32,144 bases of DNA. Origin: Xanthobacteraceae bacterium (lineage in GTDB: Bacteria > Pseudomonadota > Alphaproteobacteria > Rhizobiales > Xanthobacteraceae). A program made the translations under genes and the position numbers. The stretch spans positions 1 to 32,144 of the forward strand of contig JASHQO010000534.1 of NCBI GenBank assembly GCA_030039105.1, given 5' to 3'. Under the pieces are notes generated by a model that saw nothing but the letters and a program-made list of their open reading frames with translations, was not told where the DNA came from and did not search any database. Shown here one piece after another: positions 1,052 through 30,072 of this stretch; within the stretch, counting starts at the first letter, position 1; each line of letters starts with the position of its first letter.

Positions 1052-2149
1052 TCAAAGCTGCAGCCACCACGCGCCGAGCAGAAGCGCGATCATGATGATG
1101 GCCGTTGCCAAGGCCGATACGGCAGCGATCAATACGACGTAGCGCCGCTCCACAATGTGCCGCGAAGTCCCGGCCGACTTGGTCTCGGGCAACGTAGGCG
1201 TGCGTTGCTCGCTGTCGGCAACTGCGCGCTCGGTGGCCTTGCGCATCGCGCCGTCGTCGGCCGCCGCGCCTTCATCGGGCTCCAGCAGTGCGGCCAACTT
1301 GCGCGGCCGGGCGCCGCGCCGCGCCGCGTCGAGGATGTTCGGCTGCAGCACGGTCCAATAGCGTCGGTTTAGCGCCGGGTCGCTCGATCGGGTGCCGGTG
1401 TTGACGTCGATCGGCGGGACGAAGGGAATGTCGAGCGTCTTTTTGAAGGCGACCAGGATCGCATAGTCGGAGATGTCGTGCTGTCGCAATGCCGCTCGCG
1501 CCTGCGGCGCATAGTTTCGGTTGAAATCGAGAATATTCTCCGGGATCGGATAGCTGTTGCCGCCGTAGTAAAAGCTCATATAGAGCCATTTGTAGTCGTT
1601 GCTGCGCGCCAGGTACCAGAAGAACTTCGGATTGTAGTTGACCAGCCCGTGATTGAGCATGCCGCCGGCGGGCAGGTGGTGAATCATGACCGCGCCGGGC
1701 GCGGCGAGGTCATGCACTATCTTGAACGCGTTCATCTGATTGCAAACGTGCTCGGTGGTGCCCAAATTCGTCACCAGGCCGTATTTGCCACGCAAGTCGC
1801 CGGGCACCCGATCGTAGTTCAAGTCAAGCGGGATGCTTCCCGGGCTGCCGTCGACGTCGATCGAGGTATAGTCGAACCCGAGCGCAATCCAGAAATCGCG
1901 GGCGAAAGGCGCGGCGTCATCGAGCAGCTCCATGTGTTCGATTGATACCGTCGCCGGCCCCGGCACCGGCAACACGTACGGCCGCGCAGCTCCGAATGCG
2001 GCTTCGGCGCGGCGGACCAGATCGTCGGATCGCAAGAAGCTGTTCGAGAGCTGCTGCGCCCCAAGCTCGGCGACGTAGCGATTGAGCGGAATATGCTTCT
2101 GCCGCCGCAGCTCGATCAAAAGCTCGAGATCATGTTGACTGATGCCCAA
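1052..2149 (-). CDS. Putative SAM-dependent methyltransferase-like protein with a C-terminal transmembrane anchor
   Basis: 365-aa ORF. TTG at 2149 is the first possible start after an in-frame stop. Rossmann-MTase-like motifs: VAELGAQQ, LVTNLGTTEHVCNQ, PGAVMIHHLPAGG. The C-terminus is one hydrophobic helix, VVLIAAVSALATAIIMIALLLGAWWL. The ORF is secure; the function is moderately supported. Confidence 0.5.
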   Translation of the reverse strand: MGISQHDLELLIELRRQKHIPLNRYVAELGAQQLSNSFLRSDDLVRRAEAAFGAARPYVLPVPGPATVSIEHMELLDDAAPFARDFWIALGFDYTSIDVDGSPGSIPLDLNYDRVPGDLRGKYGLVTNLGTTEHVCNQMNAFKIVHDLAAPGAVMIHHLPAGGMLNHGLVNYNPKFFWYLARSNDYKWLYMSFYYGGNSYPIPENILDFNRNYAPQARAALRQHDISDYAILVAFKKTLDIPFVPPIDVNTGTRSSDPALNRRYWTVLQPNILDAARRGARPRKLAALLEPDEGAAADDGAMRKATERAVADSEQRTPTLPETKSAGTSRHIVERRYVVLIAAVSALATAIIMIALLLGAWWLQL

Positions 2150-2220: not shown

Positions 2221-3627
2221 TCAGCCGGCGGCAGCGCCGGACAGTGCATTCCGCCGCTGCTGGCGCTCGCGCCAAGCCTGCAGATGTGCGGACAGTCGGC
2301 GGCGCAGATAGCGGCGGCACGGCATTTCGATCAGCCGGTAGGTGGCGCTCGCCATGATGATCGAAAAGACTACCGCCACCGGAATTCTGATCAAAGCTTC
2401 GATGCCGTTGGCGAGATTGAACTCCACGGCAGGACGCAAAAAGGCTCGCAGCGTCCAGGTATGCACCGCGTAGATCGAATAACTGATCTCGCCCAAGGCA
2501 ACCAATGCGGGCGCCGCGAGCAGCCGACCGACCGCGCTGTCATAGCGCGACACGCAGAAGATCACGGTGGCAAGCGGGACGGCGGGGCCGAAATTCAGAT
2601 TGAAGAAGCGAATGTAGCGGTCGAGCAACGGATCGGTGGTGCTGATGGCCTCGCTGGCGCCGATCAGCACCAGCACCGCAAGCGCGGCCCACAGCGCGAC
2701 AGACCCCCATCGGCGCTCCACCGCATCGACCGGCCGGCCGGCCAATAGCATGTAAAGCTGCGCAGTCAGGCAGCCGAGCACGAATTCCAGCACGCGGACA
2801 TAGGGCGAATAGTAGAACAGCCAGCGGTGGAAGCCGTAATCTTTGTCGGTCAGGGCCGAATCGTCCGTCACGCATCGGCGGGCCAAGTCGATGATGTCGG
2901 CGCGGTGCACCTCGGCCACGTCCAGCACAAGGAACACCGCGAGCGAGACGATGACGATCGCCAGCATCGTTGCATAGGGTGTGCGCAGGCGGAACAGCGC
3001 GAAAACGAATACGACGTAGCAGCAATAGAAGAACCATTCGGTGGAGACCGACCAGCCGAGCCCGAAGCCGTTCTCGAGGAGAAGCCTGTGATTGACGACG
3101 ATGATATAGAACCAAGACTGAGTCATCGTCAGCGAAGTGACGACGACCTTGAAGAAATCGGCCAGATAATCGTGCAGCCAGTTCACCATGAAGTCGCTGA
3201 TGACGCCAACGACGACGCAAAACAGATACAACGGATAGAGTCTGGCAAATCGCGCGATGAAGAACTCGGCCGTGGCGAACCGCCATGAGCGCTCGCGGAA
3301 CAGGGCGCCATAATTGTAGTGGATGACGAAGCCGGAAAGCACGAAGAAGAGCGGCATGCCGTAAACGCCGATCACCGCGATGGAGGAGCTGATCGGATTG
3401 CGGCTGGTGAATGGCGCCGTCCAGGCGATCGTATGCGACACCAGGATCGACGCCGCAGCGAGGAATCGCAAACCGGTGAGCGCATCGACCCTGTCGCGCA
3501 AGTCCAGCCCGGTGGTGCTGCTGTCTCGAGCCGTCACAGCAATCGGCGCTCCGCTGCGGCCGCAAATTTTGCCGCAAGGCGCGGCGTGTTGACTTTCGCC
3601 GACCCGGCCCCGGCCGAGCCGAGGCAT
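2221..3627 (-). CDS. Acyltransferase family 3 (membrane O-acyltransferase)
   Basis: The track ORF is 2221..3849. I prefer ATG at 3627-3625 because a start at 3849 would overlap the divergent gene at 3764. The family N-terminal motif (ALTGLRFLAAASILVSH) follows shortly after Met75. Other motifs: LFFVLSGFVIHYNY, FFIARFARLYPLY. Multiple hydrophobic helices throughout. Confidence 0.8.
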   Translation of the reverse strand: MPRLGRGRVGESQHAAPCGKICGRSGAPIAVTARDSSTTGLDLRDRVDALTGLRFLAAASILVSHTIAWTAPFTSRNPISSSIAVIGVYGMPLFFVLSGFVIHYNYGALFRERSWRFATAEFFIARFARLYPLYLFCVVVGVISDFMVNWLHDYLADFFKVVVTSLTMTQSWFYIIVVNHRLLLENGFGLGWSVSTEWFFYCCYVVFVFALFRLRTPYATMLAIVIVSLAVFLVLDVAEVHRADIIDLARRCVTDDSALTDKDYGFHRWLFYYSPYVRVLEFVLGCLTAQLYMLLAGRPVDAVERRWGSVALWAALAVLVLIGASEAISTTDPLLDRYIRFFNLNFGPAVPLATVIFCVSRYDSAVGRLLAAPALVALGEISYSIYAVHTWTLRAFLRPAVEFNLANGIEALIRIPVAVVFSIIMASATYRLIEMPCRRYLRRRLSAHLQAWRERQQRRNALSGAAAG

Positions 3628-3763
3628 CGGTTCCGAGCGCAGTTTTATCGGGCTCCGCAGCGTGGCGCAACGTATTGAGCATGCATTGCCTTTGGCTGTT
3701 GGTTGCGCGACCCGGATCGGTGTTGTTACAAACTGACCTAGGCGATGTGGGGCAGGGGCCCGG
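3628..3763. promoter_or_regulatory. Divergent intergenic region between the two acyltransferase-3 paralogs, with an inverted repeat
   Basis: 136-bp non-coding gap between head-to-head genes. It contains GCGCAAC (3665-3671) and GTTGCGC (3702-3708) separated by 30 nt, with a GCATGC palindrome at 3679-3684. Promoter and operator roles are inferred only from position. Confidence 0.3.
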
Positions 3764-5437
3764 ATGTCGACGATTGCCGCTTTGGATTCCGCTGCGACGG
3801 CCCTCGACGCTCCGGCCCTGCAGTCGGCCGGGCCCATCGTCCGCGGCACGTCGCCGGTCCACCCGCATATTGCCGCGCTCGACGGGCTGCGCTTCTTCGC
3901 CGCCTTCAGCGTGATGGTCGGACACGGCTACTGGTACATCGTGCTGCTGCAACAGTCGCAGACGGCGCTGACCCCCTTCGATAATTTGATGCTCAGTGGC
4001 GCCAGCGTCGGCATGACATTGTTTTTCGCGCTGAGCGGCTTTGTCATCCACTTCAATTACCACAAGACGGTGCCGGCGGGCGTGTCGGGCAAGCTCGATT
4101 TCTTCATCGCGCGCTTCGCCCGGCTGTATCCGCTGTTCTTGCTGGTGTTCGGCTACGATTTTTTCACGCTATTGTGGACCCAGGGCTATTTTTCCGGCTA
4201 CGTGTTCTCGCTGTACGACGCGTTCAGGCCGCTGCCGCTCTATCTGACGTTCACGCAGACCTGGTGGTGGTGGCCGATCGGGGCGACGACGGCGTACGAT
4301 TACTACAGCACCTGGACGACCGGCGCGACCGGCGCGATGTGGTCGCTGTCGACGGAGGCGTTTTTCTATTTCGCCTATCTGTTTTGCGCCGCCGCGCTGG
4401 CGCGTTTGGCCGGCCGCTGGCTTGTGATCGTCGGCGTCGCTGCTGTGGTTTATGGACTGGTCTACTATATTTTCGGCTGGTTCCATTCCAACACGTGGAG
4501 CGGTTGGGCCGCCGTGCATTATCCAGAAGCCCAGCCCAACGAATTTACCCACTGGATCCTGTTTCAATCGCCCTACGGCAGAATGTCCGAGTTTCTGCTC
4601 GGCGCGGTCGCGGCGCAGGTCCTTCTGGTGCGCACCGGAAAGAGCGAGAGCGGCACGACGGCGAAACTGCTGACCTACGGCAGCCTCGTCATTTTTCTCG
4701 GCGCCGTGGCGGCGGTTTTCGGCCGGGCCGATAACCCATTCGTCACCATCTGCACCCAGTGCTGCGCGGCATTCGTTGCCATCCTCATCTTTGCCGCCGC
4801 GCGTTACCGGTCGTGGCTGTCGACCTTTCTTTCCACTCCTCTTCTGGTCAAGCTCGGCAATGCGAGCTATTCGCTCTATCTTCTGCACTATTTCATCCTG
4901 CACGATTATGGGCAGTTGCTCGTCGTACGGTATCCGGGAATCTCACGCTGGACGATCTACATCGGCATGATGATCGTCGCGCTCATCGTGTCCTACATTT
5001 CATACATGGTGATCGAGCGTCCGGCGATACGGTGGGTCCGCGCCAATTTCCGCTCTTTGCGCATGATCGTTTGGCTGCCCGTGCTGCTGACGTTGATCAC
5101 GCTGTTCAGTGTGCTGATCTCCATCCACATGCGCGCGTTGGCCCGTTCCGAGACGATGCAGCCTCCGGGCCGTATCGCTGTTTCGTCGGCAAGCTTCGGC
5201 GAGAATTGCGACGCGAAGCTTCACGACAATATCCTCGGCCTGATGCGGCGGGCCTGCAACGGCCAAGCCTCATGCGACTTCGTCTACGACGTGATGAAGA
5301 TAAGAGATCCGGCAGGCGGATGCGTGAAGCGCTTCCAGGTCCTGTATTCCTGCGGCTCGAACGACAGCCCGCGCGAATTCCTGATGCCGGAATTCACCCG
5401 CCCGCAGATGCGGATCGCATTTGCTTGCACGCGATAG
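3764..5437 (+). CDS. Acyltransferase family 3 fused to a C-terminal Cys-patterned SUEL-lectin-like domain
   Basis: 557 aa. AT3 motifs: LDGLRFFAAFSVMVGH, LFFALSGFVIHFNY, FFIARFARLYPLF. An extra TM (MIVWLPVLLTLITLFSVLISI) precedes an ~89-aa tail (nt 5168-5434): GRIAVSSASFGENCDAKLHDNILGLMRRACNGQASCDFVYDVMKIRDPAGGCVKRFQVLYSC. Confidence 0.85.
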   Translation: MSTIAALDSAATALDAPALQSAGPIVRGTSPVHPHIAALDGLRFFAAFSVMVGHGYWYIVLLQQSQTALTPFDNLMLSGASVGMTLFFALSGFVIHFNYHKTVPAGVSGKLDFFIARFARLYPLFLLVFGYDFFTLLWTQGYFSGYVFSLYDAFRPLPLYLTFTQTWWWWPIGATTAYDYYSTWTTGATGAMWSLSTEAFFYFAYLFCAAALARLAGRWLVIVGVAAVVYGLVYYIFGWFHSNTWSGWAAVHYPEAQPNEFTHWILFQSPYGRMSEFLLGAVAAQVLLVRTGKSESGTTAKLLTYGSLVIFLGAVAAVFGRADNPFVTICTQCCAAFVAILIFAAARYRSWLSTFLSTPLLVKLGNASYSLYLLHYFILHDYGQLLVVRYPGISRWTIYIGMMIVALIVSYISYMVIERPAIRWVRANFRSLRMIVWLPVLLTLITLFSVLISIHMRALARSETMQPPGRIAVSSASFGENCDAKLHDNILGLMRRACNGQASCDFVYDVMKIRDPAGGCVKRFQVLYSCGSNDSPREFLMPEFTRPQMRIAFACTR

Positions 5438-5453: not shown

Positions 5454-6350
5454 TCATCGACGGCGCGCGATGACATACATGATGTCGAACATGTTGACGG
5501 TGACGCGCAGATCGAACACGCGCCAGCGGCTCAAGGCATTGTAGAGGCCGCTCTTCCGTGTCCGCCAGACCAGGACGTAATAGAGGATCGAACGCAGATT
5601 CCGCGAGATTCCGGGATGGCTGAGATGCATGACGTCGAAGCCATGCCGCTCGAGCAGCAGCCGCATGGTCGCGGCTGAGAAATAGTGCAGATGGGTCGGC
5701 GGATGGATCATCCGCCACTTGGCGCCGCGCAACCGTGCATTCAGGCTACCGATGTCGCCCGTGGTCAGCGCCAGCACGCCGCCCGGCTCGAGGTCGACAT
5801 GGATTTTCTCAACGAAAAGGTCGGGACGCTGCAGGTGCTCCACGGTGTCCCACATGACGATGGCGCGGTATTTTTTGCCGAGCGGGCGATTGAGATAGTC
5901 GCCCTGCGCGATATCGAGCGCGAAGCGGCCGCGGCCATAGGCGGTCGCTTCGCCTGAAATATCCAGTCCCGCGACCGATCTTACAAAATGCCTTGCTTCG
6001 TCGAGAAAAAAGCCGTAGGCGCAGCCGATCTCGAACATGTCGCGCTCGTGCAGGTCCGGAGCGATGCGCGCTAAGGTGCGCAGCCGGGCCCTGAAATTCA
6101 GCCGCAGGCTTTCTTCTTCGGCGACGTAGTCGAGGTATTCGTCGCCGTGAAAATAGCCGCGCTCATAGAGCTTCGCTATATCTTCCTCAGTAAGATTGAG
6201 ATTGGCGGAGACGAAGCCGCATCGCGTGCATGCGACCAGGCCGGGCGGGTGGCTCGGTTGCGTGGCGCCGCCGCAGACCAGACAATTCGCGCTCGCGATG
6301 CCGGGAGCAAGGGCCGGCGGCGCGGCGAATCGGGCGACGTCTTCGGTCAC
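5454..6350 (-). CDS. Class I SAM-dependent methyltransferase with an N-terminal CxxC...CxxC zinc ribbon
   Basis: The track ORF extends to 6545. I prefer GTG at 6350-6348, which overlaps the upstream gene's TGA (GTGA, 6350-6347). Motifs: CLVCGG...CTRCGF, MFEIGCAYGFFLDEA (motif I), VAGLDIS, IVMWDTVEHL, LEPGGVLAL. Confidence 0.8.
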   Translation of the reverse strand: MTEDVARFAAPPALAPGIASANCLVCGGATQPSHPPGLVACTRCGFVSANLNLTEEDIAKLYERGYFHGDEYLDYVAEEESLRLNFRARLRTLARIAPDLHERDMFEIGCAYGFFLDEARHFVRSVAGLDISGEATAYGRGRFALDIAQGDYLNRPLGKKYRAIVMWDTVEHLQRPDLFVEKIHVDLEPGGVLALTTGDIGSLNARLRGAKWRMIHPPTHLHYFSAATMRLLLERHGFDVMHLSHPGISRNLRSILYYVLVWRTRKSGLYNALSRWRVFDLRVTVNMFDIMYVIARRR

Positions 6351-7603
6351 AGACGCTGATCCAGATTTCGCTCCGACTCGGCGTGCCGGAAATTCGGCAA
6401 AACGTTGGCGATCGCGCGCGCCAACGCGTCCTTGGCAATGGCCCGATCGGGTTCGTTTACCCAGCACGCGATGTCGTCGAATAATTTTTGCGCGGCGGCG
6501 TTGCTCGGGACGTGGCGCAACGCGGATATGCTGCCGAGCCCGCAATCGGTGACGCTCTCTCCGGCGTCGACGAACTCCTCGAAGGGTTTTTCGCCGCCGG
6601 TATCGAGCGGTGTCAGCAGCAACGGCCAGCGCCCCTCCCGCGCCAGCCGCTCGACGTCGTTGCGCGCGCGCGCTTCGTCGTCGTAGCGCTCGGGCAACAG
6701 GCCCCAGTAATCAAGGCAGGCGCAGGCAACGTCTTCGAGGAGCTGCAGTTGAAATTTCGTGTCGGTCCGCGGTACAGCGATATGAGTGCCCGGAATCCGG
6801 CATGCGGCGATCAGGCAAAGCTCTGCCGCCTCGCCGTGGGAGATGAAGTAGCGCCTAGTATCGCGCGGCACCGCAAGCGGTTGCTGCTTGGCCAGGCGAT
6901 AACCAAAACCTTGCAGCAGGCTGCCGTTCGAGAATGCCACATTGGCAAATCGCGCCGAGGTCGACGCCTGATAGCCGGCGGCGGCCGCGTCGAAGACCAA
7001 ATCTTCCATCAGGCGCTTGTTGGCCCCCATCAGGCTCACCGGATTGGCCGCCTTGTCGGTCGAGACCGCAAAATAGGTCGCGCCGTGGCGGCGATCGGCA
7101 AGCCAGCGCTTGAAACGGATATGCCGGACCACGTTGGTATCGAACATCTGCAGGACGGAATAGATGTCCTTTTCCGACCGCACATGCTTGAGCGCCGCGA
7201 AATTGAGCACCACGTCGTAGGGCGGCACGTCGCGCAAGAGCCGCGCCATCACCGGGCCGCCGTAGTCGAGCGGCAGTGCGCGAAAGTCAATATCGGGAAT
7301 GCCGGTGGGTCGGCCGCGCAAGGTGCGAACGAGCTCGGCGAGCGAGTTCTCGTTGTGATCGGCGACGTGCAGCGCCGCCGGCGGATCGTCGAGCAGCAGC
7401 TCGACCGTGGCCGCACCGATGGAACCCGCGCCGCCGATCACCAGAATCCGGCGGCCGTGAATTTTTGCGGTGATGGCGTCGCGGCTTGCCGCGAGGTCGC
7501 CCGCGAACAGGGACGCGGTCCGCCCGGTGACGATCGCGGTGAGTTCCGCGGTTTCCGTTCCGGCGAGGCAGGCGGGCGTGCTGGCGCGGTCTGCCCGGTT
7601 CAT
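6347..7603 (-). CDS. CapD/WbqV-type polysaccharide biosynthesis SDR (nucleotide-sugar 4,6-dehydratase/epimerase family)
   Basis: Only the last 418 codons of track ORF 6347..8932 look real. ATG at 7603-7601 overlaps the upstream TGA (ATGA). Motifs: RILVIGGAGSIGAAT, NFAALKHVRSEKD, AVSTDKAANPVSLMGANKRLME. Confidence 0.8.
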   Translation of the reverse strand: MNRADRASTPACLAGTETAELTAIVTGRTASLFAGDLAASRDAITAKIHGRRILVIGGAGSIGAATVELLLDDPPAALHVADHNENSLAELVRTLRGRPTGIPDIDFRALPLDYGGPVMARLLRDVPPYDVVLNFAALKHVRSEKDIYSVLQMFDTNVVRHIRFKRWLADRRHGATYFAVSTDKAANPVSLMGANKRLMEDLVFDAAAAGYQASTSARFANVAFSNGSLLQGFGYRLAKQQPLAVPRDTRRYFISHGEAAELCLIAACRIPGTHIAVPRTDTKFQLQLLEDVACACLDYWGLLPERYDDEARARNDVERLAREGRWPLLLTPLDTGGEKPFEEFVDAGESVTDCGLGSISALRHVPSNAAAQKLFDDIACWVNEPDRAIAKDALARAIANVLPNFRHAESERNLDQRL

Positions 7604-8631
7604 AGCCGTTCCACACTTTCGCCCATGACCGTGCCGCTCTGCGCGACGGGCGCGATCGCCGTCCGCTCGGCCCCTTCGCATCGCGCTGGCCTGCCGCGGA
7701 TGTAACGGTGGTTGGCGATATATCGGGGCCGGCCTTTCACCTCGTCGAAAATCAAGCCGATATATTCGCCGATGACGCCGAGAAAGAACAATTGCACGCC
7801 GCTCAGGAAGCACAGCGCGGCGATCAATGAGGCCCAGCCCGGCACATCGATCGTGCCGAGCATATAGAACACGATCTCGAGGAAACCGCCGAGAAAGCTC
7901 ATAAAGGCGATAACCATCCCCAAGGCGACGCAAAAGCGCAGCGGAAATTTCGAGAACGAGCAGATGCCGTTGAGCGCGAAATTGACGAGCGTCGACGGGC
8001 GATAGTGCGAACGTCCGCCCGGCCGGGCATTGGGAACGAACGGCACGTGGACAATGTTGAAGCCGACCCAGGACACTAGGCCGCGCAGGAACGGATTTCG
8101 TTCGGTGATCTGGGCGCGTACGACTTCGGCGACGCGCTGCGACAGCAGCCGGTAGTCGGACGCGCCGGTCGGCAAATCCACCGCGCCGACGCGCTGCAGC
8201 AAGGAATAGAACCAGCGCGAGGTCAGGCGTTTGACGAGGCCGGTCTCGCGGCGGTCCTGGCGCACCATCTGCACGATGTCGGCGCCGTTCTCCCATTGCT
8301 CGACGATGCCGGCAATGAGCTCGGGTGGGTGCTGCAGGTCGCTGTCGAGCATGACGACGGCGTCGCCGCGGCTGCAGTCGATCCCCGCGATCAGCGCCGC
8401 CTGATGTCCGAAGCGCCGCGACATCACGATCACCTCGACCCGCGGATCGCGCGCGCTGATCGCTTGCAGCAGCGGCTCGGTCCTGTCCGGCGACGGGTCG
8501 AGCACGTAGACGATGCGGATGCGATAACGCTGTTCCAGCGGCTGCAATGCCGCCGCGAGCTGGCGATGGAAGAGCTCGATCATCTCTTCCTCGCGAAACA
8601 CCGGACACACGACGTCGAGGCTTCGCATCAT
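7600..8631 (-). CDS. GT2 polyprenyl-phosphate glycosyltransferase (GtrB / ArnC / DPM1-like)
   Basis: 343 aa. The N-terminal GT2 core has VVCPVFREEE, VLDPSPDRT, VMLDSDLQHPPE. Two C-terminal TMs end in the family hallmark LSGVQLFFLGVIGEYIGLIFDEVKGRPRYI. ATGA overlaps at both ends (8631-8628 and 7603-7600). Confidence 0.8.
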   Translation of the reverse strand: MMRSLDVVCPVFREEEMIELFHRQLAAALQPLEQRYRIRIVYVLDPSPDRTEPLLQAISARDPRVEVIVMSRRFGHQAALIAGIDCSRGDAVVMLDSDLQHPPELIAGIVEQWENGADIVQMVRQDRRETGLVKRLTSRWFYSLLQRVGAVDLPTGASDYRLLSQRVAEVVRAQITERNPFLRGLVSWVGFNIVHVPFVPNARPGGRSHYRPSTLVNFALNGICSFSKFPLRFCVALGMVIAFMSFLGGFLEIVFYMLGTIDVPGWASLIAALCFLSGVQLFFLGVIGEYIGLIFDEVKGRPRYIANHRYIRGRPARCEGAERTAIAPVAQSGTVMGESVERL

Positions 8632-9182
8632 CGCATGCTCTCGATGACCGACTGCAGTCCGCGTTCAAGCGATACGGCCGGCTGCCAACCCAGAACCCGA
8701 CGCGCCACCGTCGCATCCATGCGCGCCTGCGCGATCTCGTGCGGCCTGGGTTGCCCGGTCGCCCGATAGGACTTGTGCCGCCCGGCGACCCGGCAGCTAC
8801 AACGGATGATCTCTTCGACCGAATAGGCCGTTCCCGAGCCGAGGTTGAAAATCGAACCCGCCGGCGCCATCGTCGAGAGCAGCATCGCATCCACCACATC
8901 GTCAACATGAATATAATCGCGGCGCGGTGCAAGGTCTTGCACCAGAATCTCCGGGCTCCTGTCGTCCAGCAGTTGAGCGATCACGTGCGGGATCAAAAAG
9001 CTTTTCGTTTGGCCTGGGCCGTAAATGTTAGCCGGCCGAAGCGTCACCGTCTTCACGCCGAAATGCGAACCGTAGAACGTGCAAACCTGCTCGCCGATCG
9101 GCACCATCGGTTTCGGCAGCGTGATGGTGAAGGGATGCAGCCGCGTGCCGCGGCCGCCGGCAAGAATGACGGCGCGGCTCAT
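8628..9182 (-). CDS. Chimeric relic ORF: about 31 aa of a sugar-1-phosphate nucleotidyltransferase N-terminus fused in frame to the C-terminal half of an NAD-dependent epimerase/dehydratase; possibly a pseudogene
   Basis: MSRAVILAGGRGTRLHPFTITLPKPMVPIGE (NTP-transferase signature GGxGTRLxPxTxxxPKP) runs directly into QVCTFYGSHFGVKTVTLRPANIYGPGQ...RDYIHVDDVVDA...LGWQP. This is the SDR region downstream of the catalytic YxxxK. The product has no Rossmann GxxGxxG motif and no catalytic Tyr. The junction is near nt 9086-9092. Confidence 0.6.
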   Translation of the reverse strand: MSRAVILAGGRGTRLHPFTITLPKPMVPIGEQVCTFYGSHFGVKTVTLRPANIYGPGQTKSFLIPHVIAQLLDDRSPEILVQDLAPRRDYIHVDDVVDAMLLSTMAPAGSIFNLGSGTAYSVEEIIRCSCRVAGRHKSYRATGQPRPHEIAQARMDATVARRVLGWQPAVSLERGLQSVIESMR

Positions 9183-14221: not shown

Positions 14222-15370
14222 ATGCGCGCGCTTATTCTCGGCGGCGACGGTTATCTCGGCTGGCCGACGGCCATGGCGTTTTGCCGCGCCGGCCACGAGG
14301 TCTGCGCCGTCGACAACTATCTGCGCCGCAAGATCGCACGCGATACCCATTCCGACGCGCTGATGGCCAATCCGCTGCTACCGGAACGCGCAGCGCTGTT
14401 CGAGCGACTCACCGGAGCGAAGATCGAGGTGGCGATCGGCGATTGCTGCGATTTTGCTTTCCTGTCGGGGCTGGTTGGAAAGTTCGCACCCGACGTGCTG
14501 GTGCACTACGCCGAGCAACCGTCGGCGCCTTATTCGATGATGGGTTATGACAAAGCACACGCCACGCTGTCGAACAATCTTACCGCCACCTTCAACACCA
14601 TCTGGGCGGTGATGCAGCACGCGCCCGACTGCCACATCATCAAGCTCGGTACCATGGGCGAATACGGCACGCCCAATATCGACATCGAGGAAGGTTGGAT
14701 CGACATCGAGCACAAGGGCCGCAGCGACAGGTTTCTGTTCCCGCGGCAGGCCGGCAGCCTCTATCACACCACCAAGGTGCTCGACACCGATCTGTTGTGG
14801 TTCTACGTGCGCATTCACGGCCTGCGCGTCACCGACCTGATGCAGGGGCCGGTCTACGGGCTCTCCACCGACGAGGCCGATCTCGACCTGCGGCTGTTAC
14901 CGAATTTTCACTACGACGATATCTTCGGCACGGTGGTGAATCGCTTCCTGGTGCAGGCCGTGGCGCGCATCCCGCTGACGGTGTACGGCCGTGGCGGCCA
15001 GAAGCGCGGCTACCTGAACCTGCGTGACACCTTGCAATGCGTCGCCCTTGCGGCGGCGCATCCGCCGGCCAAGGGCGAGCTGCGCATTCTCAATCAATTC
15101 ACCGAGACGTTCTCCGTCAACGAACTGGCCGAGCGCGTGCAGCGTGTCGGGCGGTCGCTCAATCTCGCGGTCGAGATCCAGCACCTCGACAACCCGCGCA
15201 AGGAGATGGAGGAGCACTACTACAATCCGGCGCATCACGGCCTGGCCGAGCTCGGCCTCAAGCCGCATCTGATGACCGATGACGTGGTCGCGGCCATGCT
15301 GGAGCGGGTGTTCGAATATCGCGATCGTATCGTCGCCGATCGCATCATGCCGCGCGTGCGGTGGCGCTGA
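14222..15370 (+). CDS. sqdB: UDP-sulfoquinovose synthase homolog (SqdB/SQD1/Agl3 family SDR)
   Basis: The 382-aa product is colinear with SQD1 as I remember it. Motifs: LILGGDGYLGW, HYAEQPSAPYSMM, KLGTMGEYGTPNIDIEEGW, SLYHTTK (Y-H-x-x-K), TDLMQGPVYG, FGTVVNRFLVQA, PLTVYGRGGQKRGYLNLRDTLQC, NQFTETFSVNELA, NPRKEMEEHYYN. GGGAG lies 7 nt upstream of the ATG. Confidence 0.8.
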   Translation: MRALILGGDGYLGWPTAMAFCRAGHEVCAVDNYLRRKIARDTHSDALMANPLLPERAALFERLTGAKIEVAIGDCCDFAFLSGLVGKFAPDVLVHYAEQPSAPYSMMGYDKAHATLSNNLTATFNTIWAVMQHAPDCHIIKLGTMGEYGTPNIDIEEGWIDIEHKGRSDRFLFPRQAGSLYHTTKVLDTDLLWFYVRIHGLRVTDLMQGPVYGLSTDEADLDLRLLPNFHYDDIFGTVVNRFLVQAVARIPLTVYGRGGQKRGYLNLRDTLQCVALAAAHPPAKGELRILNQFTETFSVNELAERVQRVGRSLNLAVEIQHLDNPRKEMEEHYYNPAHHGLAELGLKPHLMTDDVVAAMLERVFEYRDRIVADRIMPRVRWR

Positions 15371-27463: not shown

Positions 27464-28516
27464 GTGGCACCGTCAACGGGTATCGATTTGGTGACGGGCG
27501 GGGCCGGGTTCATCGGCAGCCACCTCGTTGATCGCCTGCTGGCCGATGGCCGGATGGTTCGCGTGCTCGACAGTTTTATCGTCGGCCGCCGCGCTAACCT
27601 CAAGCAACACAACGGAAATCCTCACCTTGCGGTGATCGAGGCCGACATTGCCGATAGCGCCGCGGTGGCCGCGGCCACGGCCGGCGTCGCGCGCGTGTTT
27701 CATCTCGCTGCCCGCGCCGATATCGTGCCCTCGATTCAGGAACCGGAGGCTTATTTCCGGGCCAATGTCGACGGCACCTTTTGCGTGCTCGAGGCGGCCC
27801 GCCGCCATGGCGTCAAGCGGCTGGTCTATGTCGCCTCGTCGTCCTGCTACGGCATCCCGGAGCGCTATCCGACGGCCGAAACAGCGCCGCCCGATTGCCG
27901 GTACCCCTACGCGCTGACCAAATATCTAGGCGAACAGTTGGTCATGCACTGGGCCCAGGTTTACCGGCTGCCGGCGGTTTCCGTGCGCTTCTTCAACGTC
28001 TATGGCCCCCGCGCGCGCACCAGTGGAACTTACGGCGCGGTTTTCGGCGTGTTCCTGGCGCAGCTTCTGGCCGGTCAGCCGCTCACCATCGTCGGCGATG
28101 GCCAGCAGACCCGGGATTTTACCTTCGTGTCCGACGTGGTCGATGCGTTGATCGCCGTCGCCGAGAGTGACAAAATCGGCGAGATTTACAATGTCGGGAG
28201 TGGCCGGCCGGTCAGCGTGAACGAGCTTGTGAGGCTTTTGGGATCGCCGCCGACGGTGCGTATCCCGAAACGCCCCGGCGAGCCGGACTGCACCTGGGCC
28301 GACATTTCCAAGATCCAACGCGATCTTGGTTGGCAGCCGAAGGTCAGCTTTGCCGATGGCGTCAAGGTGATGCAACAGAACATCGACTATTGGCGCGACG
28401 CGCCGGTCTGGACCGCGTCCCGCATCGCCGAGGCGACCAGCGACTGGTTTCGTTTTCTCGACAGCGACCGCAGTGACGTCAGAGGACGAGAATGGACTCG
28501 AGCGTCACGAAGCTGA
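27464..28516 (+). CDS. NAD-dependent epimerase/dehydratase family SDR (GalE/UXS-like)
   Basis: The track start is TTG 27410. AGGAGG at 27454-27459 favours GTG 27464 (or 27461). Motifs: LVTGGAGFIGSHLV, HLAARAD, VASSSCYG, YALTKYLGE, VRFFNVYGPR. Confidence 0.8.
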   Translation: MAPSTGIDLVTGGAGFIGSHLVDRLLADGRMVRVLDSFIVGRRANLKQHNGNPHLAVIEADIADSAAVAAATAGVARVFHLAARADIVPSIQEPEAYFRANVDGTFCVLEAARRHGVKRLVYVASSSCYGIPERYPTAETAPPDCRYPYALTKYLGEQLVMHWAQVYRLPAVSVRFFNVYGPRARTSGTYGAVFGVFLAQLLAGQPLTIVGDGQQTRDFTFVSDVVDALIAVAESDKIGEIYNVGSGRPVSVNELVRLLGSPPTVRIPKRPGEPDCTWADISKIQRDLGWQPKVSFADGVKVMQQNIDYWRDAPVWTASRIAEATSDWFRFLDSDRSDVRGREWTRASRS

Positions 28517-30072
28517 CCCCCCAGGTCGAGGTCGGCGGACCGACCAGCCCCCGCGACAAGGTCCGCACGCTCGCCGAGGTCGCCGCGATCTGCGGGCACA
28601 GCAGGCGCGCCGGCCAGACCGTGGTCCAGGCCCACGGCACGTTCGATCTCCTGCATCTTGGCCATGTCCGCCACCTCGAAGCCGCGCGCAAGCTCGGCGA
28701 CGTTCTGATCATCACCGTCACGGCGGATCGCTTCGTTAACAAAGGGCCTGGCCGTCCGGTGTTCAGCAGCGAGCTGCGCGCCGAGATGCTGGCGACGCTC
28801 GAATATGTCGATTGGGTGGCGATCAACGATGCCGCCGATGCGGTCAGCGCCATCGAGCGCATCCGGCCGTCGATCTACGTCAAAGGCCAGGACTATCAGA
28901 ACCCGCAGGGCGACATTACCGGCAAGATTTCGCTGGAGCGCGACGCGGTCGAAGCTCACGGCGGGCGGATTCATTTCACCGACGAGGTGACATTCTCGTC
29001 GAGCGAGCTAATCAACCGCCATCTCAACGTGTTCGAGCCGCATATCCGCGAGCATCTCGACACGCTGCGCCAGGACGGCGGCCTCGATCAGATCGTCGAC
29101 TTCATCGAGCGCGTCGCCGACTACCGCGTCCTCATCGTCGGCGACGCCATCATCGACGAGTACCAGTACGTCTTGCCGATGCACAAGACGCCCAAGGAGA
29201 ATATGATCGCGACCCGCTATCAGGACCGCGAGCTGTTCGCCGGCGGCGTGTTCGCGGCCGCCAACCACGTGGCGTCGTTCTGCAAGCACGTCGACATCAT
29301 CACCTGCATCGGCGATTCGGAGACCCACGACGATCTGATCCGCCAGAGCCTGAAGCCGAATGTAGGCTTGCGCGCCTTCACCCGCGTCGGCGCGCCGACC
29401 ACCCTGAAGCGGCGCTTCGTCGATCCCTCGTACATGCGCAAGCTGTTCGAGGTCTATTTCATGAACGACGAGCCGCTGACGCCGGACGTGCAGAGCGACA
29501 TCGACCGTGCCATCATCGATCGCGCCGGCGACTACGACGTCGTCATCGCCGCCGATTTCGGCCACGGCCTGATCGCCGCCTCCTCGATCGAAGCGTTGAC
29601 CACGAAGTCGCGGTTCCTGGCGGTGAATACCCAAAGCAACAGCGCCAATCTCGGCTACAACCTCATCACCAAATATGATCGCGCCGACTACATCTGCATC
29701 GACGCGCCGGAGGCGCGGCTCGCGGTCAGCGACCGGGTCGCCAATGTCGGCGATATCGCGCGTCGGCTCGCCGAGAATCACATCGACTGTTCGAAGATCA
29801 TCGTCACCCAGGGCAAGCACGGTTGTGTGACGTTCGAGGCTGGCGGCATCACCCACACCATCCCGGCGTTCGCCAAGAATGTCGTGGATACGGTTGGCGC
29901 CGGCGATGCGTTCCTTGCTGTGACCGCGCCGCTGGTGGCGGCCGGCGCGCCGATGAACCGCGTCGGCTTCATCGGCAACGTCGTCGGCGCGCTCAAGGTC
30001 GAGATCGTCGGCCATCGGCGCTCGATCGAGAAAGCTGCGCTGATCAAGGGCATCACCGGGCTGCTCAAATAA
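28492..30072 (+). CDS. Bifunctional sugar kinase / nucleotidyltransferase with domain order reversed relative to HldE(RfaE): N-terminal cytidylyltransferase-like, C-terminal PfkB kinase
   Basis: 526 aa. The N-terminal domain has HGTFDLLHLGHVRHLEAAR (the HxGH motif of TagD/RfaE-domain-II-type nucleotidyltransferases) and YVKGQDY. The C-terminal domain has VLIVGDAIIDEY, the PfkB signature DTVGAGDAF, and GNVVGALKV. It overlaps the upstream gene by 25 nt. Confidence 0.75.
   Translation: MDSSVTKLTPQVEVGGPTSPRDKVRTLAEVAAICGHSRRAGQTVVQAHGTFDLLHLGHVRHLEAARKLGDVLIITVTADRFVNKGPGRPVFSSELRAEMLATLEYVDWVAINDAADAVSAIERIRPSIYVKGQDYQNPQGDITGKISLERDAVEAHGGRIHFTDEVTFSSSELINRHLNVFEPHIREHLDTLRQDGGLDQIVDFIERVADYRVLIVGDAIIDEYQYVLPMHKTPKENMIATRYQDRELFAGGVFAAANHVASFCKHVDIITCIGDSETHDDLIRQSLKPNVGLRAFTRVGAPTTLKRRFVDPSYMRKLFEVYFMNDEPLTPDVQSDIDRAIIDRAGDYDVVIAADFGHGLIAASSIEALTTKSRFLAVNTQSNSANLGYNLITKYDRADYICIDAPEARLAVSDRVANVGDIARRLAENHIDCSKIIVTQGKHGCVTFEAGGITHTIPAFAKNVVDTVGAGDAFLAVTAPLVAAGAPMNRVGFIGNVVGALKVEIVGHRRSIEKAALIKGITGLLK

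Follow-up and report, generated by a model that had tools for sequence, protein, structure and literature searches.

The window (the whole 32,144-nucleotide stretch of DNA that was analysed) carries a polysaccharide cluster, with genes for methyltransferases, a GT2 enzyme, CapD-like and SDR sugar enzymes and HldE/GmhA-like proteins. It includes a gene in which an AT3 O-acyltransferase core is followed by one more transmembrane (TM) helix and by a 100-aa tail that forms a small C-terminal domain. The gene, its parts and its neighbours are as follows.

3764..5437, + strand: whole gene, stop codon included; AT3 core followed by TM11 and a SUEL-like tail, 557 aa (ORF list, translation)
3872..5005, + strand: AT3 membrane core, residues 37-414 (Pfam PF01757)
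5012..5062, + strand: Arg-rich loop, residues 417-433, between TMH10 and TM11 (hydropathy, charge count)
5063..5131, + strand: predicted eleventh TM helix, about residues 434-456, by which the tail is carried to the periplasmic side (hydropathy, AF2)
5132..5170, + strand: short conserved linker, residues 457-469 (22-orthologue alignment)
5171..5362, + strand: SUEL/RBL-like core, residues 470-533 (Pfam, PDB profile matches, AF2 tail model)
5363..5434, + strand: C-terminal extension, residues 534-557 (AF2 tail model)
2221..3627, - strand: AT3-only paralogue, divergently transcribed, with neither TM11 nor tail (Pfam AT3, E 1.6e-21)
5454..6365, - strand: Zn-ribbon and class-I methyltransferase, convergent (Pfam Methyltransf_23, E 1.2e-20)
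7600..8631, - strand: GT2 polyprenyl-phosphate glycosyltransferase-like protein (PgfS/ArnC-like), a glycan-modification context (Pfam Glycos_transf_2, E 4.1e-26)

The 557 residues are encoded by 3764-5434 (+), and 5168-5437 covers residues 469-557 and the stop codon. A sequence-only reading of this DNA had reported a SUEL-type cysteine pattern in the tail, and the pattern that it quoted is read exactly in the translation: IAVSSASFGENC is followed by 14 residues and then by ACNGQASCDFVYDVMKIRDPAGGCVKRFQVLYSC, which runs on to residue 557. The ORF 3764-5437 has 22 orthologues of 555-580 aa and two partial ones, all of which carry AT3 according to Pfam.

PF01757 is matched above its curated cut-off (93.9 bits versus 31, E 1.3e-26, profile positions 2-325 of 326), and the same family is matched by 22/22 orthologues. 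Two AT3 motifs can be read from the sequence, namely R43-X10-H54 in TMH1 and RXXR as R117-F-A-R120 in the first cytoplasmic loop; R43, H54, R117 and R120 are nearly invariant in the 22-orthologue alignment, and PMC7448272 and PMC9558356 describe R/K-X10-H and RXXR as AT3 motifs of significance. In the AF2 model of the full protein (mean pLDDT 67), about ten long helices precede residue 417 and pack as a bundle, and a crude hydropathy scan resolved only 8 peaks.

The 17 residues of the loop at 417-433 include five Lys or Arg and a single Asp or Glu, so that the positive-inside rule, together with the AT3 topology published in PMC7448272, points to a cytoplasmic location. The helix that follows has a Kyte-Doolittle peak of 2.57 at 434-452, and in the AF2 model it belongs to one long continuous helix spanning 395-461. 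The alignment to a tail-less AT3 at the syntenic position of another alphaproteobacterial genome (locus L001) ends at residue 429. In the linker, A458 is invariant among the 22 orthologues, and L459, A460 and G469 are nearly so.

Apart from AT3, SUEL_Lectin is the sole Pfam family matched by the protein. Searched alone, the tail matches it with E 2.2e-4 over profile positions 11-80 of 80, so that the profile match expected from the sequence-only reading was obtained, albeit at 22 bits and below the gathering cut-off of 31.4; 12/22 orthologues match at E <= 0.01. When the same Pfam model was run over the whole genome, it missed the tail itself and returned a chance-level match elsewhere only (E 0.47). 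NCBIfam has no family for either the whole protein or the tail. Comparison of profiles with the PDB gave SUEL/RBL chains exclusively: a profile of the 22 orthologues found them in 9/9 matches at E <= 10, and one built from the tail and 30 stand-alone relatives in 12/12 matches at E <= 1, the best being SUL-I (7e-16) and CSL3 (1.9e-10).

The tail was also modelled separately by AF2 (pLDDT 83, pTM 0.71). In the model, the core has strands at 471-478, 503-509 and 524-530 and a helix at 484-498, and the C-terminal extension adds two more strands (537-541 and 548-554). When this model was compared with 48,161 chains using VIA-align, SUEL-fold chains were the top 7 (rmsd 3.1-4.0 Å over 64-70 residues, identity 12-27%, or 21-27% for the top six), with Z values of 4.0-4.8 that all fall in the range below 5 graded as weak by the tool itself; the best unrelated chain had a Z of 3.5. 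The matches cover model residues 9-76, or 466-533 of the protein, and leave the C-terminal extension outside. Foldseek against the PDB gave no match at E <= 0.001, its best being an unrelated chain at 1.4, and no SUEL chain was among the 50 matches listed. A search of the ESM Atlas with the tail reached a best score of 0.79, which we treat as a lead; among the four matches listed, one row had PF02140 in 20% of its members.

The Foldseek result, the VIA-align Z below 5, the sub-cut-off Pfam score and the retention of only three of the eight canonical Cys positions would all be expected if the tail were unrelated and its SUEL likeness due to chance or to the convergence of a small cystine-rich fold. 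Against this stand the profile E of 7e-16 to SUL-I, with SUEL/RBL chains as the only matches, and the behaviour of longer relatives. Of 50 relatives found by profile and picked from the longer of at least 150, 42 match SUEL_Lectin at E <= 1e-4; the gathering cut-off is exceeded by 34 of them and also by the relative P0131. In addition, one relative (L088) is an intermediate that links the canonical YGR and DPC..G..K motifs to the C-terminal extension of the bacterial family. A fortuitous likeness is therefore highly improbable, and the tail belongs with the SUEL/rhamnose-binding-lectin (RBL) fold as a divergent homologue, not as a canonical lectin domain. The homology claimed at the outset thus holds, with support from the tail-alone Pfam match, the PDB profiles and the VIA-align top 7.

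The six tail cysteines (C482, C498, C504, C520, C530 and C555) are invariant in 22/22 orthologues, which are 55-91% identical, so that the conservation named as a test in the sequence-only reading was indeed found. Each is kept in 92-100% of 334 domain copies, and C555 in 334/334. The first five lie in the SUEL-like core, together with the conserved D-P...G-C..K loop (D515-P-A-G-G-C-V-K522), and C555 lies in the extension, which has no equivalent in canonical SUEL domains. RBL domains have eight conserved Cys forming four disulfides (PMC2430599). The PDB profile alignments show that the tail does not follow this pattern: 3/8 positions are kept, namely the C-x5-C pair and the final Cys of Y-x-C, and its other three Cys are at new positions.

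The comparison with SUEL/RBL domains (PF02140; CSL3, 2zx0; SUL-I, 5h4s; latrophilin Lec, 2jx9/8djg) can be extended beyond the modelled alpha/beta core, which superposes with theirs over the 64-70 residues mentioned above. Shared elements are the A-x-(Y/F)-G strand, C-x5-C, the D-P...G..K loop and an aromatic residue after it, Y-x-C, and two sugar-site residues, Lys and Gly. Unlike these domains, the tail has no loop-1 Cys, its DPC Cys has moved by three residues (DPAGGC), a new Cys lies two residues past the YG equivalent, and a two-strand extension ending in a Cys has been gained at the C-terminus; moreover, it is bacterial, membrane-tethered and present in single copy. It also lacks the N-terminal hairpin, and hence the first two canonical Cys and the essential Glu are missing. 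A C-terminal SUEL-fold module on a carbohydrate-active enzyme is also found in plant GH35 beta-galactosidase, and rice BGal1 (5iaz) is among the top structural matches in VIA-align (Z 4.0). Rice BGal1 is a soluble glycoside hydrolase whose SUEL-type domain has the canonical Cys pattern, whereas the present protein is a membrane acyltransferase.

In the latrophilin RBL, the sugar-site residues are Glu42, which follows the first Cys, Tyr63 of the YGR motif, and Gly117 and Lys120 of loop 2; the Glu of the N-terminal hairpin is essential for rhamnose binding, and Lys120 both binds sugar and stabilises its loop (PMC2430599). K522 of the tail aligns with Lys120 and G519 with Gly117, but the set is incomplete: in the YGR motif, Phe478 stands in place of Tyr and Glu480 in place of the buried Arg, and the Glu-bearing segment is absent. 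Phe478 departs from the wider bacterial family as well, where Tyr is found in 91%; the Glu-Ala pair of the family's C-terminal extension (81% and 87%) is F544-T545 here, and 12/31 family signature positions differ in this tail. The lectin assignment of the sequence-only reading thus stands as regards homology and the fold of the model, and not as regards a canonical domain. Given the sub-cut-off Pfam score, the missing Glu hairpin, the changes in YGR and the 3/8 Cys, we describe the tail as a putative sugar-binding domain on the basis of its sequence.

The domain is not restricted to this protein; its family comprises 2,581 representative clusters, mainly unnamed metagenome proteins with a rewired disulfide pattern, and is only partly detected by Pfam. 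The same domain recurs on or beside other extracytoplasmic glycan-modifying enzymes. It follows other AT3 cores in 1-4 copies, so that the fusion noted at this locus proved recurrent and not unique to it, and some relatives are already labelled with both the AT3 and SUEL Pfam families. It is also fused to GDSL/SGNH-like proteins (L160, L167 and P0166) and to GT-C/PMT_2 proteins (P0292 and P0293). Further carriers are trypsin-like proteases, secreted proteins in which it accompanies a second lectin module, MVL (L088), and proteins with tandem copies and no detected catalytic family. Among the closest AT3 relatives, from 80 species-representative genome loci, it is present in 0/84 AT3 ORFs. The family forms a bacterial branch of the SUEL lectin fold, which is otherwise mostly animal and plant.

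A stand-alone form also exists as a TM-anchored protein of 141 aa. Its gene is convergent with an AT3-only gene in 15/51 metagenome loci whose sequence extends at least 1 kb downstream, and without one in the other 36/51; for comparison, 8 AT3 matches are spread over the 4.49 Mb of this genome. One locus with the convergent arrangement is in this very genome, whose two copies of the domain are thus both tied to AT3, one by fusion and one by adjacency. In another locus (L096), an AT3-SGNH gene is immediately followed by a stand-alone copy. Complex prediction for the stand-alone domain protein and the adjoining AT3 gave a score of 0.00 in two runs without controls, which speaks neither for nor against binding. 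A single origin of the AT3-domain association was considered; a quick tree placed the three domain-tied AT3 groups in one clade (SH-aLRT 86). In a careful AT3 tree, these groups were each monophyletic (99/95, 100/99 and 100/99) and the backbone was unresolved, and for this reason we claim neither one origin nor several.

The layout predicted for the protein is that of AT3-SGNH enzymes (OafA, OafB, OatA, PglI) as described in PMC7448272 and PMC9558356: an N-terminal 10-TMH AT3 core with R/K-X10-H and RXXR, surface-glycan gene surroundings, and an 11th TM helix and short structured linker which bring a C-terminal domain to the periplasm. The 11th helix seen by hydropathy and AF2 therefore places the tail in the SGNH position, as had been proposed. 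In OafA/OafB, the SGNH domain performs the last transfer step according to the same texts. Unlike that SGNH transferase domain of ~200 aa, the domain delivered here is ~90 aa long, disulfide-rich and lectin-like. The absence of an SGNH domain was likewise confirmed, as no match to SGNH, Lipase_GDSL or Lipase_GDSL_2 was obtained in the 557-aa protein (Pfam, E <= 10), while the same library does find PF19040 in L096 and GDSL_2 in L160; nor is a catalytic triad conserved in the 334-copy domain family. The last transfer must therefore fall either to the AT3 core or to a different protein.

We considered whether the tail, by virtue of occupying the SGNH position, could be a new catalytic acyl-transfer domain. 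Ser475, Ser477, His487 and Asp488 are invariant or nearly so in the 22 orthologues and could suggest this, but they are not kept family-wide, position 487 being Gly in 83% and 477 Thr in 75%. That AT3 can be followed by as many as 4 tandem copies, and that tandem copies occur on proteins without a detected catalytic family, is also at odds with catalysis, and the SUEL fold family has no known enzymatic member. Moreover, the methyltransferase that adjoins the gene also adjoins AT3 in syntenic loci (77% identity to the L001 neighbour), and at L001 the AT3 is tail-less, which argues for a self-sufficient core. A catalytic role of the tail is thus very unlikely.

The core is most similar (44% identity) to this 428-aa tail-less AT3, and in this respect the protein resembles AT3-only enzymes (Oac, WbaK, Lag1, IcaC), to which TM11 and a periplasmic domain have been added. 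No acceptor-recognition module is known for AT3-only enzymes, and PMC9558356 raises this as a question.

The explanation that we favour, with slightly better than even confidence, is that the protein is an AT3 O-acyltransferase whose periplasmic SUEL-like tail is a glycan-targeting accessory module and not a catalytic substitute for SGNH. TM11 would place a small disulfide-rich domain in the periplasm, right at the membrane surface. Its six Cys would form three periplasmic disulfides, likely 498-504, 482-520 and 530-555, and the C-terminal strand could stand in for the missing N-terminal hairpin. The AT3 core would accept the acyl group from acyl-CoA in the cytoplasm, carry it through the membrane and perform the transfer itself, as thought for AT3-only enzymes; the syntenic homologue beside the same methyltransferase has no tail. 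The non-catalytic tail would bind or orient the acceptor polysaccharide of the surrounding cluster, and would thereby set which glycan or residue is acylated.

An alternative is that the SUEL-like fold does not bind sugar and serves as a protein-contact or structural module: it might cap the AT3 pore at its periplasmic mouth, mediate dimerisation, or dock a separately encoded partner, for instance an SGNH transferase, a polymerase or a ligase. Receptor-borne RBL domains can bind proteins rather than sugars, and those attached to receptors have been argued to recognise non-carbohydrate ligands (PMC2430599). The loss of the Glu hairpin and the change of Tyr to Phe fit such a role, as does the TM11-tail linker, which is conserved and, at about 13 residues, so short that the domain has to lie up against the membrane protein. 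PMC7448272 reports that OafB has a structured periplasmic linking region which limits acceptor access, and the L096 copy that follows an AT3-SGNH gene also fits this alternative. On the other hand, the Lys and the Gly-containing loop of the canonical site are kept. The domain is also found on three unrelated enzyme folds (AT3, GDSL/SGNH and GT-C), on secreted MVL-linked proteins and on trypsin-like proteases, a spread which is more easily explained by a portable ligand-binding module than by a dock dedicated to one partner. We regard a protein-contact or structural role without sugar binding as possible, though rather unlikely.

Extending the glycan-targeting explanation to the family, we tentatively propose that the six-Cys, hairpin-less domain is a portable acceptor-recognition subunit for glycan-modifying enzymes at the cytoplasmic membrane's outer face, acting in cis when it follows AT3, SGNH/GDSL or GT-C enzymes in a fusion and in trans as the TM-anchored 141-aa protein whose partner is an AT3-only gene product. 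If this were true, a separate lectin-like partner would answer part of the question of how AT3-only enzymes, which have no SGNH domain, choose their acceptor.

Among the targets of AT3 acyltransferases are O-antigen, capsule, peptidoglycan and Nod factors, whose decoration shapes phage, immune and symbiotic recognition. Two bacterial layouts are known, AT3-only and AT3-SGNH, and PMC9558356 poses as an open question by what means AT3-only enzymes locate the acceptor and acylate it. The domains named as AT3 fusions in passages of PMC9558356, PMC7448272 and PMC12423673 are SGNH, NRF and the VanT racemase. We found no description of an AT3-lectin fusion in the literature searched (Pfam labels, SUEL-acyltransferase, AT3 architecture) or in those passages. 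A lectin-like domain in the SGNH position suggests an undescribed way of choosing the target sugar. This third layout, in which a non-catalytic lectin-like module is carried on TM11 and which also has split and multi-copy forms, would offer a direct handle on acceptor specificity.

If the tail does target a glycan, in this lineage Phe478 (Tyr in the family) and Phe544 (Glu in the family) could retune the pocket to a methylated or deoxy sugar, a product of this methyltransferase-rich cluster. Rhamnose as the acceptor is not supported, since every NCBIfam equivalog match in the window cluster stays below its cut-off and clear rml genes were not found; the GT2 protein at 7600..8631 reaches 243 bits with the NCBIfam PgfS model, under the cut-off of 500. 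The divergent AT3 neighbour is encoded by ORF 2221-3849 (-), of 542 aa, with AT3 at residues 123-500. As noted in the sequence-only reading, it is tail-less: AT3 is followed by about 40 residues with no further TM helix or domain. In the tree, it falls together with the paralogues from the syntenic loci L001 and L002.

The ORF at 3764-5437 (+) translates into a 557-residue protein, a membrane O-acyltransferase of the acyltransferase-3 (AT3) type, and the tail quoted in the sequence-only reading, where a cysteine pattern of the sea-urchin-egg-lectin (SUEL) type was claimed to replace the SGNH domain at the C-terminus, proved to be exact (5168-5437, residues 469-557 plus stop codon). In Pfam searches, Acyl_transf_3 (PF01757) covered residues 37-414 (E = 1.3e-26), its 93.9 bits exceeding the cut-off of 31, and the sole other match of the whole protein was SUEL_Lectin (PF02140) at residues 475-530 (E = 0.0085). 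When searched alone, the last 100 residues matched SUEL_Lectin over profile positions 11-80 of 80 (E = 2.2e-4), the 22 bits falling short of the cut-off of 31.4. NCBIfam named no family for this protein.

According to passages of two papers, AT3 cores carry ten TM helices with N- and C-ends both cytoplasmic, and fused forms export a C-terminal domain through an 11th helix (PMC7448272, PMC9558356). In the AT3-SUEL protein, the loop that follows TMH10 has 17 residues, five of them Arg/Lys and one acidic, and residues 434-452, located between this loop and the tail, are the hydrophobicity maximum of the protein. The full-length AF2 model, calculated from a 22-row alignment (mean pLDDT 67, pTM 0.62), displays a single long helix (395-461) followed by a strand, a helix and four further strands. 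Considering the published topology and the exporting role of the 11th helix in fused forms, we infer that the SUEL-like tail is periplasmic.

Orthologues were collected through a word-indexed search with residues 455-557, in which 26 candidates were scored and 22 proteins, including the query, were kept. All 22 are AT3 proteins with overall identities of 55-91%; 20 measure 555-580 residues and two partial ones 366 and 480, and Stellaceae is the only organism name supplied by the source. Both AT3 hallmarks, R-X10-H (R43, H54) and RXXR (R117, R120), occur in the protein, with hardly any variation across the orthologues. The cysteine pattern noted from the sequence is indeed conserved, with residues 482, 498, 504, 520, 530 and 555 invariant, as are S475-A-S-F-G479, N481, D488-N489, R495-R496, D515-P-A517, G519 and K522. 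Individually, 12 of the 22 proteins matched SUEL_Lectin at E <= 0.01 (best 0.0012).

When the 22-protein profile was compared to all PDB sequences, the nine chains at E <= 10 were all SUEL/RBL (rhamnose-binding lectin) domains, including SUL-I (2.1e-4), CSL2 and latrophilins, aligned to residues 478-543. A profile built from the tail and 30 stand-alone relatives retrieved 12 chains at E <= 1, again SUEL/RBL without exception (SUL-I 7e-16, CSL3 1.9e-10, CSL2 7.8e-8, latrophilins 9e-6 to 8.5e-4). The tail folded with this second alignment (pLDDT 83.1, pTM 0.71) gave no PDB match at E <= 0.001 with Foldseek. In a Foldseek-independent structural search of 48,161 chains, ranks 1-7 were all SUEL-fold, namely CSL3, latrophilin-1 Lec, SUL-I, two ADGRL3 Lec entries, the C-terminal domain of rice beta-galactosidase and P. 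falciparum P113 (Z 4.8-4.0, rmsd 3.1-4.0 Å, 64-70 residues, identity 12-27%, or 21-27% for the first six). These Z-scores are modest, the best unrelated chain reaching 3.5; nevertheless, a top ranking made up of SUEL folds alone, combined with the E-values of the profiles, leaves homology to SUEL/RBL domains as the only reasonable reading. Thus, the claim of a SUEL-type tail stands as to homology, by profiles and model, but the Pfam score lies below cut-off and the canonical sugar site is incomplete. The bridging protein P0131, a relative among representative proteins, clears the Pfam cut-off at 34.1 bits; another, from metagenome locus L088, combines the canonical YGR and DPC..G..K motifs with the C-terminal extension of the bacterial family, and by these motifs its domain copy would stand midway in sequence between canonical SUEL domains and the bacterial tails. 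We note that the L088 protein (1501-2034 (-), 177 residues) is secreted and carries its domain copy behind an MVL mannan-binding module.

The structural alignments were confined to model residues 9-76 (protein residues 466-533). The domain starts approximately 13 residues past TM11, directly at the strand equivalent to I-x-I-x-x-A-x-Y-G-R, and therefore lacks the first hairpin of RBL domains, which carries the first two cysteines and the Glu following the first of them. Unlike canonical RBL domains, the tail ends in 24 residues that form two extra strands in the model, closing with C555. Three of the eight canonical cysteine positions remain, namely the C-x5-C pair (498, 504) and the final one (530); the DPC cysteine has moved by three residues (DPAGGC, C520), and C482 and C555 are new. 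We infer a rewired disulfide pattern, pairing 498 with 504, 482 with 520 and 530 with 555, in which the C-terminal strands stand in for the absent hairpin. The RBL domain of latrophilin-1 is described as holding rhamnose by Glu42, Tyr63, the Gly117 amide and Lys120, with binding abolished in E42D, E42Q and K120R (PMC2430599). In the alignment, Gly519 and Lys522 correspond to Gly117 and Lys120, whereas Tyr is changed to Phe478, the buried Arg of YGR to Glu480, and Glu42 has no equivalent. With a site so incomplete, there is room for the principal rival explanation, in which the tail is a protein-contact or capping module.

The second profile, scored against 1.84 billion representatives, drew 2,581 matches (E <= 0.001), of which 1,325 reach 1e-10 or below and 170 reach 1e-30 or below; in many of these proteins the domain is repeated in tandem. 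Across 334 copies the six cysteines are 92-100% conserved within the signature A-T-Y-G...N-C...G-N-x-T...C...C...D-P-A-x-G-C...K...F...Y-x-C...E-A...L-x-C; the tail studied here retains 19 of 31 signature positions, its deviations including Tyr to Phe478 and the Glu-Ala pair to Phe544-Thr545. In a Pfam scan of 50 relatives, picked from the longer ones among 150 matches listed, SUEL_Lectin was found at E <= 1e-4 in 42 (34 above cut-off) and Acyl_transf_3 in six, with GDSL, trypsin-like, LCAT or kinase domains in others. A search limited to proteins of at least 372 residues found 36, two with PMT_2 (GT-C family) and 18 with PF01757, 12 of these from the family of the 557-residue protein and six from others. 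The other AT3 fusions carry one to four tandem copies behind TM11, on cores that are 29-33% identical to that of the 557-residue protein and colinear through TM11. The following proteins carry the domain on further enzymes or large membrane proteins (L, metagenome ORFs; P, representative protein):

L160:2-1399, GDSL/SGNH-like, TM-anchored, domain at C-terminus
L167:297-2003, GDSL/SGNH-like, TM-anchored, domain at C-terminus
L168:1540-3300, GDSL/SGNH-like, TM-anchored, domain at C-terminus
P0166, GDSL/SGNH-like, TM-anchored, domain at C-terminus
L163:553-3309, 919-residue multi-TM protein with the domain

The domain therefore also goes with GDSL/SGNH enzymes, the very class whose place it seems to take in the AT3 protein. 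P0292, P0293, L163 and the ORFs downstream in L150/L151 are large multi-TM proteins, some with PMT_2, that bear the domain or adjoin a stand-alone gene.

A split form was found in the source genome, on contig C224 (tblastn E = 4.6e-6):

L082:1465-1935 (-), stand-alone domain gene
L082:207-1484 (+), AT3-only gene

The two genes are tail-to-tail, the former overlapping the 3' end of the latter. The stand-alone protein (141-156 residues) has an N-terminal TM anchor, 31% identity to the tail (BLASTP E = 2e-9) and SUEL_Lectin as sole Pfam match (E = 0.002); its 109 relatives, of 85-273 residues, are all unnamed. From its alignment, 80 metagenome loci were taken, 51 of which extend 1 kb or more downstream, and 15 of these 51 have a convergent AT3 ORF within 1.5 kb downstream (close family 15/41, distant members 0/10). 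The source genome holds eight AT3 matches in 4.49 Mb, a density at which such neighbors would arise by chance in far less than 1% of cases. Forty flanking ORFs from 18 loci without convergent AT3 included an AT3-SGNH gene, a 222-residue methyltransferase (seven loci), LPG_synthase_TM proteins, PMT_2 GT-C enzymes, GT14 and a TylF methyltransferase. The domain thus recurs on or beside extracytoplasmic glycan-modifying enzymes.

Beyond the observed domain order, homology and conservation of the AT3-SUEL protein, we favor a role for the tail in acceptor recognition. Acyl-CoA would enter the AT3 pore from the cytoplasm, and the AT3 core itself would perform acyl transfer at the periplasmic face; the disulfide-locked module, tethered by TM11 and kept at the membrane by a conserved 13-residue linker, would bind or orient the acceptor glycan, thereby setting specificity. 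Passages of three papers name SGNH, a eukaryotic N-terminal NRF domain and VanT racemase as AT3 fusion partners (PMC9558356, PMC7448272, PMC12423673), and full-text literature searches turned up no account of an AT3 fused to a lectin. The architecture is visible in databases, since some relatives already carry both Pfam labels, but apparently without comment in the literature: PF01757 and PF02140 are both in the precomputed annotation of four of the six fusions from other families. The lineage of the 557-residue protein itself falls below Pfam's SUEL cut-off.

The domain is rare in reference genomes (4/401 of the same order, counting the source genome). At the 80 species-representative loci closest in AT3, none of 84 AT3 ORFs carried or adjoined it, and 72 of the 79 that match to the core end stop within 40 residues beyond it. 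Syntenic locus L001 (4340-8238) contains, in this order, the counterpart of the window's AT3 paralogue, a 428-residue AT3 without TM11 or tail, and the corresponding convergent methyltransferase; compared to the window, the AT3 is 44% identical, with the alignment ending at residue 429, and the methyltransferase 77%. An AT3 can therefore do without the tail at the corresponding position of a related genome, and this speaks for the tail being accessory rather than catalytic. L002, L003 and L017 share the arrangement of L001, and these loci come from other alphaproteobacterial MAGs. An AT3 relative at L004:5899-7362 (+), 40% identical, has an 11th TM helix and approximately 30 residues beyond it with two cysteines, and could be a remnant or precursor of the tailed form. 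A maximum-likelihood tree of 45 AT3 cores, run to completion, recovers three groups as monophyletic: the single-tail family (99/95), multi-copy fusions (100/99) and AT3s next to stand-alone copies (100/99). A quick tree had joined the three (SH-aLRT 86), but the finished tree gives no supported order among them, and the association may have arisen once or several times.

By gene families, the window is a surface-polysaccharide cluster with several methyltransferases, a polyprenyl-phosphate-type GT2 (PgfS/ArnC-like), CapD/PseB-like and other SDR sugar enzymes, a UDP-sulfoquinovose-synthase-like gene, YdjC, and HldE-, GmhA- and epimerase-like heptose genes. No gene among them reached the cut-off of an NCBIfam equivalog, nor did the window show an evident rhamnose pathway. 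The UDP-sulfoquinovose synthase match (14222-15370 (+)) is full-length, at 450 bits against a cut-off of 575, and hints at an unusual 6-modified sugar. The HldE-like enzyme (28492-30072 (+)) has a domain order reversed with respect to the NCBIfam model (adenylyltransferase, residues 19-175; kinase, 206-508), and GmhA-like and epimerase-like genes follow. Lastly, a 184-residue ORF (8628-9182 (-)) opens with approximately 30 nucleotidyltransferase residues (positions 2-30 of the NTP_transferase profile) and then runs on as the C-terminal half of an SDR epimerase/dehydratase; it could be what remains after a deletion, a fusion, or a joint made in assembly.
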